Shown here: one piece after another, positions 37,026 to 46,186 of the stretch | Position numbering within the stretch: position 1 is the first letter of the stretch | Layout of the letters: each line of letters starts with the position of its first letter | Virus record (IMG/VR): IMGVR_UViG_3300031998_000001 | Span: 269,064 to 333,063 of that record | Direction: 5' to 3' (one strand) | DNA length: 64,000 nucleotides | DNA from: a virus | Taxonomy: Duplodnaviria; Heunggongvirae; Uroviricota; Caudoviricetes | Program-made: the position numbers and the translations under genes | The notes under the pieces: model-generated | The model's database searches: none | Told to the model about the DNA's origin: nothing | The model's input: the letters and a program-made list of their open reading frames with translations, nothing else

Positions 37026-37097
37026 CACTTTTTCAATTTTTCATTTTTTTCATTTTTTCATAGATTGGTTTTATTTTGTGAAGGGCGTATCAAACGG

Positions 37098-37336
37098 TTC
37101 AATAAAATTTAATAGATTTTATAAACAACCAATAAACCCAACAACGCCTATTGCATTATGGTTGCCTTAAACCATAAGCGTATAAATAATAAGGCGAACG
37201 AACAATAGGCAGCCGTACTGCCGAATTTAAGCCTGTGGACTGCCCGACTATGGATGACCGTTCAGCAATGAACCTAAAAAGTAGTGGCAGGATGAAGCAG
37301 GAAGGAGAAACTGATTTATTAGGTTTTTCCATACGG
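37098..37336 (+). mobile_element. Non-autonomous IS607-like element retaining a TnpB 3' end/omegaRNA scaffold
   Basis: ACGG at both junctions, AT-rich left end, TnpB-tail-like reading GERTIGSRTAEFKPV...MKQE; removal restores hairpin AAGGGCGTATC...GATACGCCCTT. Confidence 0.6.
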
Positions 37337-37358
37337 TAGCGATACGCCCTTTAAAGGA

Positions 37359-37440
37359 GGGAGAGTCGCGTAGTGGCAATCGCACCTGACTGTAAATCAG
37401 GCGGGGCAACCCTTCGGAGGTTCGAGTCCTCCCTCTCCCA
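37359..37440 (+). tRNA. tRNA-Tyr(GTA)
   Basis: Cloverleaf, CCTGA-CT-GTA-AA-TCAGG, long variable arm. Confidence 0.95.
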
Positions 37441-37575
37441 CGATTTGATTTTGTTTTGTGTGTAGAGGTGCTGTCGGACGACGACATTGCTCGCACAGCA
37501 CCTTTTTGGTTTTTAGGATTATATTTTTCATTTTATATTATTTTTTAATCTTCACACCTGTCGTTCCGACAGGTG

Positions 37576-37665
37576 GTCATCTTCTTCCAACGGCAGGAAA
37601 CCACCCCCGATGCCGAGCAGTCGGATAAAGGGGAGGAAATGCGGGTTCGATTCCCGCAGGTGGCA
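37576..37665 (+). ncRNA. tRNA-like RNA with anticodon arm extended by a CCGA-GCAG-TCGG hairpin
   Basis: Acceptor GTCATCT/AGGTGGC, D arm TTC...GAA, T arm GCGGG-TTCGATT-CCCGC. Confidence 0.7.
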
Positions 37666-37697
37666 CAAACTTTTTAGATGTCAAGTAGGAGTATAAC

Positions 37698-37825
37698 GGG
37701 CTATGGTGAATTGCACTGAATCAAGAAAGCATAAAAAATCCAACAACAATGTCAAATAACAGGGTGTCTGCCTCTTAAAAGTTTCTTGAGCCGAAGGACA
37801 CCGTATGCGATGAAACCGTACGCCC
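37698..37825 (+). ncRNA. Pseudoknot/triplex RNA motif, copy A
   Basis: TCAAGAAA/TTTCTTGA and GGTGTCT/GGACACC crossing helices inside an outer stem. Confidence 0.7.
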
Positions 37826-37860
37826 AATGTACTCTGAAACTCGTCAAGTCAAACGCAAAC

Positions 37861-37984
37861 GGGCTGGCAGGGCGGTGAGATGCACTGAATCAAGAAAAGA
37901 ATAATGGTACATACAGCAAGGGTGTCTGCCTCTTTAAAAGTTTTCTTGAGCCGAAGGACACCGAAGGCATCGAACCGCAAGCCT
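37861..37984 (+). ncRNA. Pseudoknot/triplex RNA motif, copy B
   Basis: Same core as copy A, covarying outer stem, different loop. Confidence 0.7.
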
Positions 37985-38162
37985 TATCCGTAACACCAAG
38001 CACCCCCCTCACACCAGATTTCCGAAGTTACAAATTCGCTGTCTGGACGCGGTGGTGCGAAAAGTCAAGCGCAAAGTACAAGCGTGTACCAGTGGAACTC
38101 TGGCGTTCCGCAGAAATGCGGGGAATAAGCAAAGGCGGTACGATAACCCGCCCAACCCACCA

Positions 38163-38239
38163 CGCACCGTAGCATAATACTGGCAGTGCAAGGACGCTAA
38201 ACCCGTCCTGAAGTCCTCGTTCGAGTCGGGGCGGTGCGG
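38163..38239 (+). tRNA. Atypical tRNA, apparent anticodon AAA (Phe?)
   Basis: Acceptor CGCACCG/CGGTGCG, normal T arm, 6-bp anticodon stem with CT-AAA-CC loop. Confidence 0.55.
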
Positions 38240-38245
38240 CAATAT

Positions 38246-38321
38246 TGCGGGGTAGAGCAGTTGGTAGTTCGTCAGGCTCATAACCTGAAGGTCGGCGGTT
38301 CGAGTCCGCCCCCCGCTACCA
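38246..38321 (+). tRNA. tRNA-Met(CAT), initiator-like
   Basis: Unpaired 1:72, TCAGG-CT-CAT-AA-CCTGA, encoded CCA. Confidence 0.92.
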
Positions 38322-38557
38322 TCTTATAACATTTTGGTAGAAAACCACCCAGACACGAAGAGTTAAATACCCGTGGAAGTCGGGCGCGTGTCGCCAGCAA
38401 CGGCACGCGGAGCGGGTGGTTATTAAAGAGCGCAACCGTTTTTAATTTCATAAAATTTCCGCCACCCTACGGGTTATCGTGGCGGTTTTTACACAAACGC
38501 ACATTGCCGACAACAGGTTTCGGACAAAATTTCCGAAGCGGAAGGCAATGTCGGAAA

Positions 38558-38585
38558 CTGGATATAAGCAAATTACACATATCGT
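38558..38585 (+). promoter_or_regulatory. CRISPR leader-proximal sequence shared by both arrays
   Basis: 26/28 identical to 42528-42555, abutting the first repeat in each array. Confidence 0.7.
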
Positions 38586-39146
38586 ATTGTTGTGGCATAC
38601 CGTATTACGGGTGCTGACAACTTTGCAGCGTGGAGGTGCAAGGCACTGGAAATTGTTGTGGCATACCGTATTACGGGTGCTGACAACTTCGGAGACAGCC
38701 ATTCGCAGATACCGTAATTGTTGTGGCATACCGTATTACGGGTGCTGACAACATATTATACAATTTCAATATATTGTGAATTATTGTTGTGGCATACCGT
38801 ATTACGGGTGCTGACAACACTCCCTGCTCACCACATACGAACATTACGATTGTTGTGGCATACCGTATTACGGGTGCTGACAACCATCAATGAATTGCTG
38901 AAAGTCTATTGTTTATTGTTGTGGCATACCGTATTACGGGTGCTGACAACTGCAAGAGCGACAAGTGGAATGATGAAATTGTTGTGGCATACCGCAGGGC
39001 GGATGCCGACAACTACCATAGGCGAGCAAATCTGGAAGTTATGGATTGTTGTGGCATACCGTATTACGGGTGCTGACAACATATACCTTTGCCGCTCGTT
39101 CAACAGTCAAATTGTTGTGGCATACCGTATTACGAGTACTGACAAC
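38586..39146 (+). CRISPR. CRISPR array 1: 9 repeats of 36 nt (ATTGTTGTGGCATACCGTATTACGGGTGCTGACAAC), 8 spacers of 27-31 nt
   Basis: Repeats start at 38586, 38652, 38717, 38783, 38849, 38915, 38978 (variant), 39045, 39111 (variant). Confidence 0.98.
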
Positions 39147-39433
39147 CGAGGTGAAACGATATATCCTCGCGGGGCATCTGGGTCGAGCCGACTTGTTCGG
39201 CTTAACGAGAACGGCAGACAGCGTTCCAGCCCCGAAATCTCCCGATAGGGGGAAGCGCGTTGTGCGCAAACCATAAGACAGGTCTGCTCCCCAATCTGGA
39301 AAGGGGCTTTAAACGGAGACCAGCATCAGACGGACGGTAGGGCATCTGGTGAAACTTACAGCACGCCCCCAATTCGCAGGGGGAACTTTGCCATCGGCTC
39401 GCTGTGGTCGCGGTGCTCCGATTATCTACAAGT
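39147..39433 (+). ncRNA. 287-nt structured segment bracketed by CRISPR repeats
   Basis: Several perfect stems (CGAGG/CCTCG, CGGGGC/GCCCCG, AGCCGA/TCGGCT, GAACG/CGTTC, AGCAC/GTGCT); no credible ORF. Confidence 0.55.
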
Positions 39434-39469
39434 ATTGTTGTGGCATACCGTATCACGGGTGCTGACAAC
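39434..39469 (+). CRISPR. Isolated CRISPR repeat (TATCACGGG variant)
   Basis: 35/36 match to the consensus repeat. Confidence 0.9.
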
Positions 39470-39620
39470 TTACTTACGACCAAGGTCGATGTTGCCTTTC
39501 TTAAACCCGATTGCTTCGGGGAGTTGCCGTGAATAATGCAGTGGCTATGTTTCCGCAAAACGCACGGCGAGCCAAGAAATCAGTGGGATGGCAACACTCG
39601 CCTTAAATTATGAAAGCATA

Positions 39621-39694
39621 CTTCCCGTAGCCCAACTGGATAGAGCGTCTGCCCCCGGAGCAGAAGGCTGATGGTTCGAGTCCATTCGGGAAGA
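39621..39694 (+). tRNA. tRNA-Arg(CCG), C at position 33
   Basis: TCTGC-CC-CCG-GA-GCAGA. Confidence 0.88.
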
Positions 39695-39736
39695 CACAGG
39701 CACGAAAGAACAATAACATAATATAACTTTTTGAAT

Positions 39737-39949
39737 ATGAACTGGAAGAAATGGACAGCAATCGGCATCACCGTAGCGGTGGTCGCAACAGGCATAATCC
39801 TTCACCTCGTACAGCCGACAATAAGTTTCGCTTGGACTGAACTTATGTGCGCCTGCGCATTCATAGCGGGTGGCGTATCGGGCTATCTCATCAAGGGCAA
39901 GATGCCAAATGACGGGAACAAGTACCAGTCGGTAGAGGGAAAGGAATAG
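39737..39949 (+). CDS. Small two-TM membrane protein
   Basis: Two hydrophobic helices and a charged tail; the only clear ORF inside the RNA island. Confidence 0.7.
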   Translation: MNWKKWTAIGITVAVVATGIILHLVQPTISFAWTELMCACAFIAGGVSGYLIKGKMPNDGNKYQSVEGKE

Positions 39950-40010
39950 GACAAAAAAAAAAGGACACCACCTCTGCGCATCGGGCGCGGAGGTCGGGTG
40001 TGCATATAAC

Positions 40011-40086
40011 GGTGTCTGTGGCGCAACTGGTAGCGCAGTGGATTGTGGTTCCAAAGGTTGCGAGTTCGAGCCTCGCCAGACACCCA
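40011..40086 (+). tRNA. tRNA-His(GTG)
   Basis: G-1, GTGGA-TT-GTG-GT-TCCA. Confidence 0.92.
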
Positions 40087-40095
40087 TTATCACAC

Positions 40096-40224
40096 GGAAG
40101 CATTGGATGGAAGTGCAAGTACCTACTGGGAACTTCCTGAAAGCGCAAGCAAAGTCGAGGTCTAACGGTACTTATGACCGAGGTAATGGCGGGGCGTTGG
40201 TTCGAGTCCAACACAATGTTTCCA
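40096..40224 (+). ncRNA. tRNA-like RNA with acceptor stem and T arm but a replaced body
   Basis: GGAAGCATTG/CAATGTTTCC closing stem, GTTGG-TTCGAGT-CCAAC T arm, internal AAGTACC/GGTACTT stem. Confidence 0.55.
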
Positions 40225-40231
40225 TTTACAC

Positions 40232-40318
40232 GGAGAGTTGCAGGAGTGGTAACTGGTCAGATTGCTAATCTGAAGCCCGCCTCTGGCGGCAGGGGTCCGA
40301 ATCCCTTACTCTCCGCCA
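40232..40318 (+). tRNA. tRNA-Ser(GCT)
   Basis: TCAGA-TT-GCT-AA-TCTGA, long variable arm, G73, CCA. Confidence 0.93.
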
Positions 40319-40485
40319 AGCAACATATTGTCGGGTAGTCGCGAATATCTTGGCGGTATGGTCGGAAAGAAGTGAATGCGATGCGATTGCGCAAGACCAT
40401 TGCGTTTAGAGTTCAAATCTCCTCTATGGTCTAACAAGGTCATATAGTTTAGTCTGGTTAAAACATTCTGACGCTTTTTTAAATC

Positions 40486-40557
40486 GCGGGAGTAGTTCAG
40501 TGGTAGAACATCGGCTTCCCAAGCCGAGGGTCGCGGGTTCGAGTCCCGTTTCCCGCT
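40486..40557 (+). tRNA. tRNA-Gly(CCC)
   Basis: TCGGC-TT-CCC-AA-GCCGA. Confidence 0.95.
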
Positions 40558-40790
40558 CAACACATAGGCTGTGGACAAGGTGGGCGAAAGTATTTTTTCC
40601 ATAGTTTTACACCAACGCCCGCCTTTTCCTAAACGCATTGGAGAGATAGAGGACTTGCCTTCTAAACAAGCAGTACGGGGGAACTTGCATCCGACCTCCG
40701 TTTCAATGCGGTAGAACTCCGCTCCCGTGACAGCGACGAATGATGCAATAGCGGTTCACGGGATACCTCAAGAAACTTCATTTTTCAAAA

Positions 40791-40863
40791 GCCACAATAG
40801 TTCAACTGGTAGAACGGCGGTATCGTAAACCGCAGGTTGCTGGTTCAATTCCTGCTTGTGGCT
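40791..40863 (+). tRNA. tRNA-Thr(CGT)
   Basis: GCGGT-AT-CGT-AA-ACCGC. Confidence 0.93.
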
Positions 40864-41059
40864 CAACAATTTCGGGGGCTTGCAACGCTGCCACTGCGGG
40901 TGGAAGCCAGCGACAAGAACTTGTGTGAAGCCGAAACGCAGTCCTTCGGGAGAGGGGCGAAGGGGCAAGCGAGATGTGTCCCACTTTTTTAAAGTAACAG
41001 GCTTTAATAAATATTTATCATTCCCGAAAGGCTGTGCGGAACAGCCTCTCGGCTTTTAC

Positions 41060-41132
41060 GGGGATTTAGTTCAGTTGGTAGAACATCTGGTTCGCAATCA
41101 GAAGGTCGCGGGTTCGACTCCCGCAATCTCCA
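41060..41132 (+). tRNA. tRNA-Ala(CGC)
   Basis: G3:U70, TCTGG-TT-CGC-AA-TCAGA. Confidence 0.95.
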
Positions 41133-41138
41133 CACGGA

Positions 41139-41210
41139 TGGGCGATAGTGTAATTGGTAACACAACGGTCTCTGAAGCCGTTATAGCAGGTTCGAGTCCT
41201 GCTCGCCCAA
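41139..41210 (+). tRNA. tRNA-Gln(CTG)
   Basis: ACGGT-CT-CTG-AA-GCCGT. Confidence 0.93.
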
Positions 41211-41367
41211 CGACAAAAATCAATCATCTGTAGATTACATACTGTTTTTAGTTGTAATTGAAGCGACCGCCGTGAGGCGGACGCAGGCTGGCGGTTGGAT
41301 AATGACGCGTAAAGGCGGTTGTGAAAGCCAACGGAAAGCACTACATCGTTAAGTGCCAGCCACCATA

Positions 41368-41502
41368 ATAGGCAGCCGTACTGCCGAATACAAGCCTGTG
41401 GAGAACCCAACCGTGGATGACCGTTGCGTAAGCAACCTAAAAAGCGGTGGTTCTGCGAAGCAGGAAGGAAATGCCTAAATTTCATTAGGTTTCTCCATAC
41501 GG
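41368..41502 (+). ncRNA. Orphan TnpB omegaRNA-like scaffold, copy 2
   Basis: Homologous to 37205-37336 with compensatory stem changes; ends in CCATACGG; no left end upstream. Confidence 0.65.
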
Positions 41503-41760
41503 TATGACAGCCTCTAACCGTAGCACATTACAAAACAAACGCTGTCATTACATAAATGGTCAGAGGCATAACGCCGAGCGCAGGTATGGTATGCGTTCAA
41601 GTCGCAGTCACGGAAGCCCCAGATAAAAATGGGAGGTGCTTGCGGTCAAGCGAGTGGTCAGCGGGCTTGCACTCGGTGTGGCAACAATGGTCGTTTCCGA
41701 ACTTACGACCATTCAAAAAGATAAGGTAGTGGCTTGGGAGGGAAAAGAAACTCTCGATAC

Positions 41761-41832
41761 GCTCCTTTCGTCTAACGGTCAGGACGCGAGATTCTCAATC
41801 TCGTAATGCGGGTTCGATTCCCGCAGGGAGTA
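41761..41832 (+). tRNA. tRNA-Glu(CTC)
   Basis: CGAGA-TT-CTC-AA-TCTCG. Confidence 0.93.
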
Positions 41833-42039
41833 CAATGGCGAACACACGACAATCCAAACTGAAGGGGAACTGGAAAACCCTCGCTCCGAGATAACATCAG
41901 CGCAGAGAGGTTGGTGAGGCAACCGTAAAAGTAATCCTGTGTGCAAGCAAGAAGGAAGTTCGGGTTCAAGTCCCGATGAGGATTATTGTTGAAGAGGGAT
42001 ATGATTCAACCATAGCACTTATGGTGCTGTGCAAGGGTT

Positions 42040-42174
42040 ATAGGCAGCCGTACTGCCGAATACAAGCCTGTGGAGAACCCAACCGTGGATGACCGTTGCC
42101 TATGCAACCTAAAAAGCGGTGGTTCTGCGAAGCAGGAAGGAAATGCCTAAATTTCATTAGGTTTTTCCATACGG
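42040..42174 (+). ncRNA. Orphan TnpB omegaRNA-like scaffold, copy 3
   Basis: Nearly identical to 41368-41502 but with different flanks. Confidence 0.65.
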
Positions 42175-42213
42175 TATCACTACTCGCGGTGGATGTGGAA
42201 ATAACCGCGATTT

Positions 42214-42287
42214 GGTCAGTTGGTGAAGTTGGTTATCATACCTGCCTGTCACGCAGGTGTTCACGAGTTCGAGTCTCGTACTGACCG
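42214..42287 (+). tRNA. tRNA-Asp(GTC)
   Basis: CCTGC-CT-GTC-AC-GCAGG. Confidence 0.93.
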
Positions 42288-42309
42288 CAGACAAAGACAA
42301 AGAACGAGA

Positions 42310-42555: not shown

Positions 42556-42780
42556 ATTGTTGTGGCATACCGTATCACGGGTGCTGACAATCAGGGGAAA
42601 GAGGTTCTGAACATTGATGAGATTGTTGTGGCATACCGTATTACGGGTGCTGACAACGGAAGTACGCGGAGTTCGCTCAATATGATGATTGTTGTGGCAT
42701 ACCGTATTACGGGTGCTGACAACGAACTACCAAAAGGCGGCAAAATGATAATTGTTGTGGCATACCGCAGGACGGATGCC
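42556..42780 (+). CRISPR. CRISPR array 2: 4 repeats (last one a truncated variant), 3 spacers (30, 30, 27 nt)
   Basis: Repeats at 42556, 42622, 42688, 42751; sits between tRNA-Asp and tRNA-Arg. Confidence 0.97.
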
Positions 42781-43789: not shown

Positions 43790-46186
43790 ATGGCACACAG
43801 AAAAAAGAAAGATGACGAAGCAACGCTATCGTACAAGTTCAAGGTAAAGGTCATAGAGGGCGACCTGACGGCAGACGACATAACGAAGTGTATCGCGGAA
43901 AACGCGGAGCAGGGCAACCATTTCTCCGAGTTCATACACAAGAACCTGACATCAAAGACAATAGGCGAGTTTGCAAGCCAACTTCCAGCCGAGAAGAGAC
44001 AGTTCGGCTACTACCAGTACGCAATCGGGGGCACGATGCCCGCCAAGAAGAACGCAAGCGACGAGGACAAGCCGAAGGGCGAACTCATAGACTGGTCGAA
44101 AAAGCCGTTCTATGTCCTTTTCTCGAAGGGATACAGCGCGACGCACGCGGTGAACCTGATTTTCAATGTTTACCTGAACTCCGAAGAGGGCAAGGCGTTT
44201 TCGGCAAAGAACTCGATGAACTTGTCAAAAAGCCAGTTCGCGTACAGCGGGTTCGTCCAGATTGTATGCGCCAACTACGCCTCGATGCTGGCGAACGCAC
44301 GCCCAGACAAGATAAAGTTCGAGGAGATAACCGAAGCCACCGATGACGGCACGAAGAAGATGCAGGTCGTAAGGGAGATGGCGGAAAGGTATCTGATGAA
44401 GCCAAAGAACTTCGCCAGCAGGATTGAATACCTCGAAGCAAACAACACGAAGGGCAAGTTCGACAAGACGATACAACGCCTGCGCCTGCTCCAGCCGTTC
44501 TTCGAGAAGAACGAGGAGAGCATAACCGAACTCTACTACGATTTGTCCGTCAAGGCACTTGAACACTCTGGACAATGCACATACAAGGGCGGACGCACAA
44601 TCTCCATACTGGAAATAGGCGACATAAGGATTTCACGCAAGGAAAACGCGAAGGGATACCTGCTCACAATTCCCATAAACAGGAAAAGTGTCGTGTTCGA
44701 CCTGTACGGAAGAAAGGACACGATAGGCGGGGACGGGCGCGACCTCATCGACATAATGAACACGCACGGGAGTTCGTTGCAGTTCACGGCAGACGAGAAC
44801 GACATATACCTGACGATTACAGCGACAAAGAATTTCATCAAGGAGAAGCCGACTTTCAACGAGGATACCGTTCTGGGCGGGGATGTCAACATCAAGCACT
44901 CGTACACGGTATTCAGCGCATCACCGAAGGACATTCCAGACTTCGTTAACTTCTACGAATATTTCGCGAAGGACGGCGAGATAATGAAACTCGCACCGAA
45001 GCCGATGTGGGACTACATCGTTGCCGCAGCAACGAAGTTCCTCACGATACTCCCCATAGAAACGCCAGCGATAAGCGCAACGGTATATGGGAAGAGGACG
45101 GAGGAAGGCATAAGCAGGGCTACATTCAGGGAAACGCAGAAACTCATAGCACTCGAAAAGGCAATCGAAAGGGTTATGAAGCAGGTTTTCGACAAGTACA
45201 ACGACGGCAAGCACCCGCTGGAAGCCATATACATCGGAAACGCAATAAAATACAGAAGGCTCATAAAGGGCTACCTCGCACAGAAAAAGAAATACTATTC
45301 CGCGCACAGCGAATACGACAAGGCGATGGGCTACACCGATGACGACACCGACAGGAAGGAGAATATGGACGAGAGACGCTTCGACGACTCAAAGAAGTTC
45401 AGGTACACCCCAGAGGCGCAGGCGTTGCTCGACACTATGCACACAATCGAGAAGAAGATTGTAGGATGCGTGTCCAACGCAATATCATACGCATACCACA
45501 AGTTCGATGAAAACGGCTTCAATGTGATTGCGCTCGAAAACCTGACCTCCGCCACATTCGCCAAGAAGTACAAGAGCGACAAGCCAGAGAGCATAAAGAA
45601 ACTGCTCAACTTCGACAAGTTGCTCGGCAAGACGCTCGATGAGGCGAAAGCCAGCAAGAGCATATCAAAGCACCCCAACTGGTATGAACTCGTAGCCGAT
45701 GAGAACGGATGCGTATCGGACATAAGGATAACCGACGAAGGTCAGTCCGCTACATACAGAAGTCTGGTGACCGAAACCATTATGAAGGTCTCCCACTTCG
45801 CCGAAACGAAGGACAGGTTCATAGGGCTTGCCAACTCTGGCAGGTTGCAGGTCGGACTCGTGCCGTCCCAGTACACTTCGTACATAGACTCCACCACGCA
45901 CACACTGTACGCGGTAATAGAGGACGGCAAGACCGTACTCGCACCGAAGGAGGTCGTAAGGGCTTCGCAGGAAAGGCACATAAACGGACTGAACGCGGAC
46001 TACAACAGCGCACTCAACCTGAAGTATATGATAACGGATGAGAATTTCAGGAAGACCTTCACATCCGAGACCAGCGCGGACAAGTTCGGATGGGGCAAGC
46101 CGATGTTCAGCCCGACCACCAGAAGTCAGGACGAAGTGTTCTCCGCGATAAAGAAAATCGGGGCGATAACCGTGCTGGAAGATTAG
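43790..46186 (+). CDS. cas-lambda: Compact phage type V CRISPR effector, Cas-lambda family
   Basis: 798 aa; RuvC-I GGDVNIKH, RuvC-II IALENL, RuvC-III HINGLNADYNSALN; adjacent ATTGTTGT...ACAAC 36-nt repeats typical of Cas-lambda loci. Confidence 0.92.
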   Translation: MAHRKKKDDEATLSYKFKVKVIEGDLTADDITKCIAENAEQGNHFSEFIHKNLTSKTIGEFASQLPAEKRQFGYYQYAIGGTMPAKKNASDEDKPKGELIDWSKKPFYVLFSKGYSATHAVNLIFNVYLNSEEGKAFSAKNSMNLSKSQFAYSGFVQIVCANYASMLANARPDKIKFEEITEATDDGTKKMQVVREMAERYLMKPKNFASRIEYLEANNTKGKFDKTIQRLRLLQPFFEKNEESITELYYDLSVKALEHSGQCTYKGGRTISILEIGDIRISRKENAKGYLLTIPINRKSVVFDLYGRKDTIGGDGRDLIDIMNTHGSSLQFTADENDIYLTITATKNFIKEKPTFNEDTVLGGDVNIKHSYTVFSASPKDIPDFVNFYEYFAKDGEIMKLAPKPMWDYIVAAATKFLTILPIETPAISATVYGKRTEEGISRATFRETQKLIALEKAIERVMKQVFDKYNDGKHPLEAIYIGNAIKYRRLIKGYLAQKKKYYSAHSEYDKAMGYTDDDTDRKENMDERRFDDSKKFRYTPEAQALLDTMHTIEKKIVGCVSNAISYAYHKFDENGFNVIALENLTSATFAKKYKSDKPESIKKLLNFDKLLGKTLDEAKASKSISKHPNWYELVADENGCVSDIRITDEGQSATYRSLVTETIMKVSHFAETKDRFIGLANSGRLQVGLVPSQYTSYIDSTTHTLYAVIEDGKTVLAPKEVVRASQERHINGLNADYNSALNLKYMITDENFRKTFTSETSADKFGWGKPMFSPTTRSQDEVFSAIKKIGAITVLED

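Follow-up and report, generated by a model that had tools for sequence, protein, structure and literature searches.

Gene-less omegaRNA scaffolds in the tRNA cluster of a large phage genome: putative right ends of an IS607-family tnpB element

What are the structured modules that recur in the tRNA cluster of a large phage genome, where do the sequences that follow them come from, and against what could they be directed? The locus lies in a 64,000-nucleotide stretch (here called the window, to which coordinates refer unless a record is named) that spans positions 269,064 to 333,063 of the Caudoviricetes record IMGVR_UViG_3300031998_000001 of IMG/VR, a virus record of 387,654 bases that is ~93% complete. 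An earlier note on this DNA had described three TnpB omegaRNA-like scaffolds with different 3′ guides, and had proposed that they form a domesticated, trans-acting guide repertoire and a second RNA-guided system alongside CRISPR, possibly aimed at competing phages or empty alleles. Comparison with homologous loci identifies all three modules as omegaRNA scaffolds, the right ends of an IS607-family tnpB element, here without the tnpB gene. All three are housed in a cluster of 15 tRNA genes, beyond which ARAGORN finds no other tRNA genes in the genome.

Identity of the modules

The scaffolds, 132-135 nucleotides (nt) long, are located on the plus strand at 37205-37336 (copy 1), 41368-41502 (copy 2) and 42040-42174 (copy 3), and both these positions and the compensatory stem differences reported earlier (CTGCC/GGCAG vs GAACC/GGTTC, ACTA/TAGT vs ACCG/CGGT and GTTCA/TGAAC vs GTTGC/GCAAC) were confirmed in the sequence. 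Copies 2 and 3 are identical at 132 of 135 nt, and copy 1 shares 105-107 identical aligned nt with them. As had been observed, there is no tnpB in the window; all five tnpB genes of the genome lie outside it, and four intact ones (A, B, D and E), which are 86-89% identical to one another, terminate in the modules' scaffold, which bears out the original assignment to TnpB and supplies the tnpB that was to be sought elsewhere in the genome. The RuvC D-E-D residues are intact in all five proteins (A, B, D, E and C). In the core, the copy 1 scaffold is 96-97% identical to the scaffolds of tnpB B and D, and translation confirms that it reads like a TnpB C-terminal tail. Copies 2 and 3 are 80-85% identical to the tnpB scaffolds of this genome, and copy 2 is 91% identical to the tnpB-linked scaffold of locus L089 (L labels denote homologous loci or viral contigs, X labels contigs of related strains by sequencing run, and F a fourth gene-less copy).

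With TnpB D as query, 160 homologous loci were fetched (the best 80 viral and the best 80 metagenomic), and the scaffold is present in 115 of them. Among 86 distinct scaffold ends, picked by TACG, conservation stops after TACG(G/A)T and the sequence beyond is near random, the base after TACG being G in 69, A in 14 and T in 3 and the next base T in 81; the right boundary of the element is uncertain by one base. Of 95 distinct loci, 35 have a recognizable left-end motif, which amounts to 33 distinct ends, and GGG lies directly 5′ of 23 of the 33. Two empty sites of homologous elements read TGGG followed by T, and the AGGG that precedes copy 3 fits this G-rich target motif. The IS607 transposase (the serine recombinase TnpA) is encoded upstream of tnpB in 11 of the 95 loci, and the three transposases that were scanned all passed the cut-off of NF033518 (NCBIfam); a serine transposase gave no match in this ~93% complete record. 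At 60 of the 95 loci the left-end motif was not found within 350 nt upstream, and many of these tnpB genes directly follow host genes or tRNAs, as if they were transposase-free homing genes.

The search with omegaRNA models that the earlier note had suggested gave a weak positive for copy 1, a full-length match to RAGATH-18 (RF03064) at 32.3 bits (E 0.0034) under the gathering score of 44.9, and no listed match up to E 5 for copies 2 and 3; at the gathering level Rfam finds only tRNAs. The phage TnpB scores higher with the IS200 than with the IS607 model of NCBIfam, neither cut-off being passed. An IS200/IS605 (Y1) affiliation of these ends was ruled out, the one Y1 fragment of the genome having a different right end. 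This fragment, a truncated transposase at G000 C1:375844-376107 of the record (L006), overlaps an opposite-strand right end of IS605 type that has no tnpB. Domesticated TnpB repressors (TldR-like) were also considered, and do not agree with the intact D-E-D residues and the lack of a self target.

In a 30-sequence alignment, 19 of 29 base pairs show two-sided changes, the covariation scores being inflated by the relatedness of the sequences, and 97% of alignment cells pair, as against 77% after shuffling (0 of 500 as high) and 41-63% after sliding. Folded singly, copies 1, 2 and 3 have z-scores of -2.4, -3.5 and -3.0. The stem variants that separate copy 1 from copies 2 and 3 are also present in tnpB-linked scaffolds such as that of L089; these compensatory differences were therefore inherited from two parent lineages and are no evidence that the gene-less copies are under selection. 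In the tree, copies 2, 3 and F group together (support 99/91) as sister to the tnpB-linked scaffold of L089, and their 5′ edges coincide within 3 nt.

The remaining gene, tnpB C (G000 C1:239175-240380; L001), belongs to another family, being 36-37% identical to the others, and is flanked by ~30-nt inverted repeats and an 8-9-nt direct repeat, which are unusual for tnpB elements. The two ends of the record (G000 C1:1-128 and 387527-387654) overlap inside the scaffold of tnpB E, so that the assembly breaks at this repeat and the right flank of E is uncertain.

Insertion sites and origin of the guides

The origin of a guide can be read from copy 2, for which empty alleles were found in two viral contigs (L167 and L168) and in joined contigs of three runs (X5, X6 and X7), absence of a copy in strain runs being counted only where one contig joins across the site. 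These alleles contain the same upstream RNA, 15 further bases and then the exact 22-nt guide, with the scaffold missing; guide 2 is therefore the ancestral insertion flank. The features of this copy are:

41266-41366, plus strand: conserved structured RNA upstream of copy 2, also in the empty alleles (88-90% identical to L167/L168; z-score -2.6; no Rfam match)
41368-41502, plus strand: omegaRNA scaffold of copy 2, without a left end; the left junction has lost 15 host nt
41503-41524, plus strand: predicted guide 2, the ancestral flank; 22 of 22 nt are identical in the empty alleles, after which homology breaks
41541-41567, plus strand: segments 41541-41548 and 41558-41567, complementary to guide 2 as read from the sequence (fold z-score -2.2); absent from L167/L168

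The short inverted copies of guide 2 at 41541-41567 could mask or sequester it. The sister phage L167, in which the copy 2 site is empty, has a gene-less scaffold of its own ~150 nt further on (L167:5726-5870, minus strand), derived from another tnpB lineage. Contigs of run X13 at 41578 and 42041 carry a CRISPR repeat at the downstream flank of copy 2 and a copy-1-type scaffold directly after a tRNA 3′ end. A 10-nt word noticed by eye is common to the copy 2 end plus guide start (41497-41506) and the reversed CRISPR repeat, probably by chance.

Copy 1 is a whole miniature element, made up of a left end, ~14 nt of tnpB and the scaffold:

37080-37087, plus strand: host flank left of copy 1, the 5′ arm of an interrupted hairpin (from the joined-flank fold and strain X10); ends in GCG, not GGG
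37088-37204, plus strand: left end of the miniature element by sequence similarity, with TATAAATA at 37181-37188 and the tnpB remnant
37205-37336, plus strand: omegaRNA scaffold and right end of copy 1
37337-37358, plus strand: predicted guide 1, the 22-nt right insertion flank; ends at the first base of tRNA-Tyr (37359-37441)

The left end of copy 1 is 70% identical over 97 nt to that of tnpB element B and 68% identical over 112 nt to L089, and its TATAAATA motif, which we take to be late-promoter-like, also precedes intact tnpB genes. When the two flanks are joined they fold into one hairpin with an 11-bp stem and a 4-nt loop (-17.1 kcal/mol), and in the related strain X10, which is without copy 1, the contig diverges from the window after 37089.

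The earlier statement that copies 2 and 3 lack a left end holds for copy 2 and needs qualifying for copy 3, where AGGG and TT lie directly 5′ of the scaffold:

42002-42039, plus strand: left flank of copy 3, with target motif AGGG (42034-42037) and the first left-end bases TT (42038-42039), from the family left-end consensus
42040-42174, plus strand: omegaRNA scaffold of copy 3; covered by an RNA-library contig (X19) with 0 differences
42175-42207, plus strand: predicted guide 3 and the rest of the right flank, followed by tRNA-Asp (42214-42288); its only exact matches lack a target-adjacent motif (TAM) and lie in unrelated records

Both ends, as kept in PATE-like elements, are retained by copy 1 and not by copy 2, while copy 3 keeps only 2 nt of the left end. 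The fourth gene-less scaffold, F (G000 C1:351899-352043; L172), lies outside the tRNA cluster, is 94-95% identical to copies 2 and 3 in the core and still has 40 nt of left end, of the L089 type and including the promoter-like motif. The left junctions of copies 2, 3 and F all differ, yet each stops at the scaffold edge. Guides 1 and 3 look like flanking sequence of hairpins or cassettes that were interrupted.

Targets, retention and proposed role

No TAM-flanked self target was found with up to 4 mismatches in 16. Guide 1 has 0 exact 17-mer matches in viral contigs, guide 3 has no relevant match in 185,579 prokaryote genomes (its exact matches, 2 viral and 3 prokaryote, include none behind GGG), and in GenBank phages neither guide 2 nor guide 3 has a relevant match (all E 0.3 or worse). 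Guide 2 matches L169, whose helicase is closest to those of phages of Alphaproteobacteria, at 20 of 20 positions with a GGG motif; this match is probably due to chance, L169 being an unlikely co-infector and other exact 17-18-mer scans having given 0-3 unrelated matches, yet on its face the coincidence is improbable. The idea that competing phages are targeted thus found no TAM-flanked target in plausible competitors. Its companion, that the guides are aimed at empty alleles, fared better, in that copy 2 empty alleles do occur in sister phages, and the empty allele of sister phages is the only credible target. A CRISPR-like array with guides acquired from foreign DNA does not describe the modules, guide 2 being a flank and guides 1 and 3 having no foreign target among those searched.

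A new lead is offered by a different group of phages that carry elements of this family, in which one gene-less site after tRNA-Lys carries guides that differ between phages and match the DNA of sisters and not their own:

L015:160-520, L115:371-730, L209:909-1270 and L126:1-160: gene-less scaffold at the tRNA-Lys site, with different guides

The L209 guide matches the tRNA-Lys of L015 at 15 of 16 positions behind GGGG, and the tRNA of L209 itself differs in the seed. The L115 guide has an opposite-strand match in neighbouring DNA of L209 (15/16) and of L015/L126 (14/16) behind TGGG, the site in L115 itself being altered. One of the guides at the tRNA-Lys site is an inverted copy of nearby DNA that starts exactly behind GGG. 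The pattern suggests guide turnover and self-avoidance, but it concerns one site only and is partly explained by an insertion that disrupted a tRNA and was then repaired. If guides are indeed exchanged at a fixed gene-less scaffold, this could be an intermediate between the guides of transposons and adaptive targeting of the CRISPR kind. A bolder proposal, which we regard as rather unlikely, is that large phages of the Bacteroidota type retain gene-less omegaRNAs in their tRNA operons because these are selected as weapons against other phages. tRNA processing would free the RNAs, any resident TnpB would load them, and the right end could capture a new guide at a GGG|T site, so that in a primitive adaptive system sisters would target the alleles of each other's tRNA regions and spare their own.

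Retention of the modules looks non-random. A covariance model run over 23 phage records gave 51 matches, one of which was a duplicated record end; among the remaining 50, classed by hand against tnpB positions, 17 belong to broken elements: in 12 of these at most ~45 nt of tnpB are left, in 4 ~100-500 nt, and in 1 the break reaches into the scaffold. That 12 of 17 breakpoints fall at the scaffold edge has a binomial probability of 3e-14 under a uniform model, a value inflated by non-independence and detection bias. Eight of these 12 gene-less scaffolds lie within 300 nt of a tRNA, and at tnpB-centred loci, a set that overlaps the census and like it includes sister loci, the same is true of 8 of 11 gene-less as against 8 of 90 tnpB-linked scaffolds (Fisher test, 8e-6). 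The gene-less state requires 8 changes on the tree, at least 5 of them forced by well-supported branches (with few columns and an unsettled bootstrap), and gene-less scaffolds appear to have arisen repeatedly. Copies 2 and 3 recur in several strains, and the strain changes listed for them miss the core helices in 8 of 8 cases, 7 of the 8 being at the tip of the variable last hairpin and 3 of these at paired positions. Copy 3, as well as copy 2 together with its guide, is represented in contigs of two RNA libraries; these libraries also cover neighbouring DNA, may contain carried-over DNA and do not reveal strand or ends. The piling-up of breakpoints at the edge, the proximity to tRNAs, the core-sparing strain changes and the library cover favour selection for an intact, transcribed omegaRNA, short of proof. 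As a related arrangement, one intact tnpB at L098:1668-5069 is surrounded by four gene-less scaffolds whose 3′ end is variant and which all lie within 175 nt of a tRNA gene.

We lean slightly towards the view that the guides of these gene-less right ends are likely all old insertion flanks, as demonstrated for copy 2, and that the modules are likely kept because four intact TnpBs can load them in trans and cut the empty alleles of co-infecting sister phages; they would then probably act in trans as homing or exclusion guides directed at such alleles. An IS607-type element inserted behind a G-rich motif, as left-end and empty-site comparison shows for the family, and tnpB was then deleted up to the first hairpin of the scaffold; in copies 2 and 3 the left end went with it, wholly or for the most part. 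Scaffold and flank may be transcribed from the late-promoter-like motif (copy 1) or within the tRNA operon (copies 2 and 3), and the transcript trimmed by tRNA processing or by TnpB. Judging from the published behaviour of IS607 and IS605 TnpBs, TnpB A, B, D or E would bind this RNA and cut DNA in which the TAM and flank are joined, which would survive only in phages without the insertion. Repair from the filled allele would then spread the module without a transposase, or the cut would merely handicap the rival; copies 2 and 3, being without a usable left end, could spread only by homing.

Several observations weigh against this account. GGA, not GGG, precedes guide 2 in every sampled empty allele and GCG marks the inferred copy 1 site, both departures from the GGG motif of the family, so that these targets may escape cutting; the GGA may represent escape, an unusable site or a tolerated variant. 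The empty site of copy 1 was not recovered, a scan having given 11 hairpins, none with flank similarity, and no empty allele was found for copy 3, the search with its upstream motif giving 2 matches that were left unread. In the close strain X13 the copy 3 scaffold is missing together with both flanks, guide 3 included, as one 206-nt block (42002-42207). Copies 2 and 3 stem from another element lineage, as their identity to the resident tnpB scaffolds indicates, so that their compatibility with the resident TnpBs is assumed, and guides 2 and 3 are able to pair with neighbouring sequence. To these points are added the possible DNA carry-over in the RNA libraries and a census in which sister loci and shared parents are not independent and truncated scaffolds are harder to detect.

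The serious rival, to which we give an appreciable but clearly minor chance, accepts the same origin and regards the copies as inert relics, a compact folded RNA being tolerated in a non-coding RNA region while the long coding part is purged. The intermediate remnants and the one decayed scaffold of the census agree with this, as do the non-canonical motifs of the natural empty sites and the variability among strains, copy 1 being absent in X10, copy 3 in X13 and copies 2 and 3 in L167/L168; the accumulation of breakpoints at the scaffold edge, the halt of three different left junctions at that edge and the sparing of the core helices argue against it. Were the modules inert, they would still account for a recurring 'unknown RNA' of phage tRNA clusters. 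The sharp 5′ edge could also reflect mechanism instead of selection if scaffold-only units moved as such, as processed omegaRNA or by one-ended IS607 recombination. Copies 2, 3 and F, a single clade with nearly the same edge, would fit such movement, and TnpB is described as processing its own mRNA to a defined 5′ end (PMC10278001); yet we consider it very unlikely, with remnants ranging from 2 to ~45 nt and left-end sequence surviving in F (40 nt), copy 1 (the whole left end) and copy 3 (the motif plus TT), which implies insertion of DNA followed by deletion.

That the modules form a domesticated, reprogrammable repertoire directed against host genes or unrelated competitors, an immune-like system beside Cas-lambda, is distinctly unlikely. 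The occurrence within a single genome of three to four gene-less scaffolds whose guides differ, the enrichment of such scaffolds in tRNA clusters, the fixed scaffold with changing guides at the tRNA-Lys site (one an inverted copy behind GGG) and the 20/20 match of guide 2 in L169 speak for it. Against it stand the identity of guide 2 with the ancestral flank, the resemblance of L169 to alphaproteobacterial phages, the guide searches, which gave no TAM-flanked self target and no relevant match either in prokaryotes (guide 3) or in GenBank phages (guides 2 and 3), and the lack of fixation of the copies among strains. From the earlier proposal trans action thus remains plausible, with cognate TnpBs in the genome, while acquired guides are not supported, guide 2 being the old insertion flank; likewise a second RNA-guided system survives in the weak sense of TnpB with trans guides at empty alleles and not in the strong sense of an acquired repertoire linked to Cas-lambda. 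Service of the modules to Cas-lambda as decoy or trans-activating CRISPR RNA (tracr)-like RNAs has a next to negligible probability, since proximity to two arrays and a cas gene is all that recommends it, four tnpB genes remote from the CRISPR locus end in this scaffold too, and gene-less copies of it occur beside tRNAs in related phages. Apart from the shared tRNA and non-coding RNA region, no link of the modules to Cas-lambda is apparent.

Known systems and neighbouring features

The modules belong to a known kind, the standalone omegaRNAs of IS607-type elements, and the comparisons that support this are unusually clear. IS607-family TnpBs with a RAGATH-18-derived reRNA, such as that of ISFba1, share with them a structured RNA at the tnpB 3′ end, and their TAMs (AGGAG or GAGGG) are G-rich like the GGG deduced here (PMC11061315); the present case is distinguished by a scaffold that overlaps the tnpB tail, a sub-threshold Rfam score, phage carriage and three copies without tnpB. 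The IS607 TnpA-S/TnpB element CboIStron resembles it in a TGGG target and TAM, a scaffold ending in CGG and a serine transposase, and its TnpB cuts the empty site (bioRxiv 10.1101/2023.11.20.567912); unlike CboIStron, there is no group I intron here, and no serine transposase was found in this record.

Standalone omegaRNAs and PATE-like miniature elements are gene-less, have effector genes in the same genome and are expected or shown to act in trans (PMC10691335, PMC10055086), and the modules agree in having no effector or transposase gene in the element and a cognate TnpB in the same genome. Those described there are bacterial IS200/IS605 derivatives with both ends, whereas copies 2 and 3, which have no usable left end, are located within the tRNA operon of a phage. 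What standalone omegaRNAs do biologically has yet to be established, according to PMC10691335. Free-standing phage homing endonucleases such as T4 SegB offer a likeness in the probable biased inheritance of a tRNA-gene region at co-infection, with the difference that specificity here would come from an RNA guide and the nuclease is encoded elsewhere (reviewed in PMC13565253). A literature search that left most subscription journals outside its scope found no study devoted to gene-less TnpB omegaRNAs in phage tRNA clusters. Since this genome encodes four intact TnpBs along with four gene-less guides, and a natural empty allele exists, in-trans homing or exclusion between phages is open to direct test.

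The neighbours of the modules in the window, lying outside the elements, include:

38586-39469, plus strand: CRISPR array 1 (36-nt repeats) with a lone repeat at 39434
42556-42779, plus strand: CRISPR array 2
43790-46186, plus strand: Cas-lambda gene (798 amino acids; E 3e-79 to PDB 8DC2 and 9e-98 to Cas Lambda2)

The matches of the last confirm the Cas-lambda locus that had been reported to adjoin the modules; Cas-lambda (PDB 8DC2, 9IZP) and its arrays show no sign of using these RNAs. A search of viral contigs confirmed no Cas-lambda relatives, and the 11 CRISPR spacers extracted have no convincing target among the loci compared (best match 17 nt). Among GenBank phages the region has no close relative (best cover 5%), and the exact scaffold pattern has 0 matches in viral contigs.

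Other structured RNAs are apparent between the genes. The segment 41570-41990, like 41266-41366, is conserved at 83-90% in L167/L168 and without an Rfam match. Two related elements of ~90 nt (37712-37803 and 37880-37972), also without an Rfam match, contain crossing complementary segments that resemble a pseudoknot; that they are small ribozymes is a guess. A tRNA-Phe call at 38163-38240, with the anticodon AAA at position 37, was missed by Rfam and is conserved in L167/L168.

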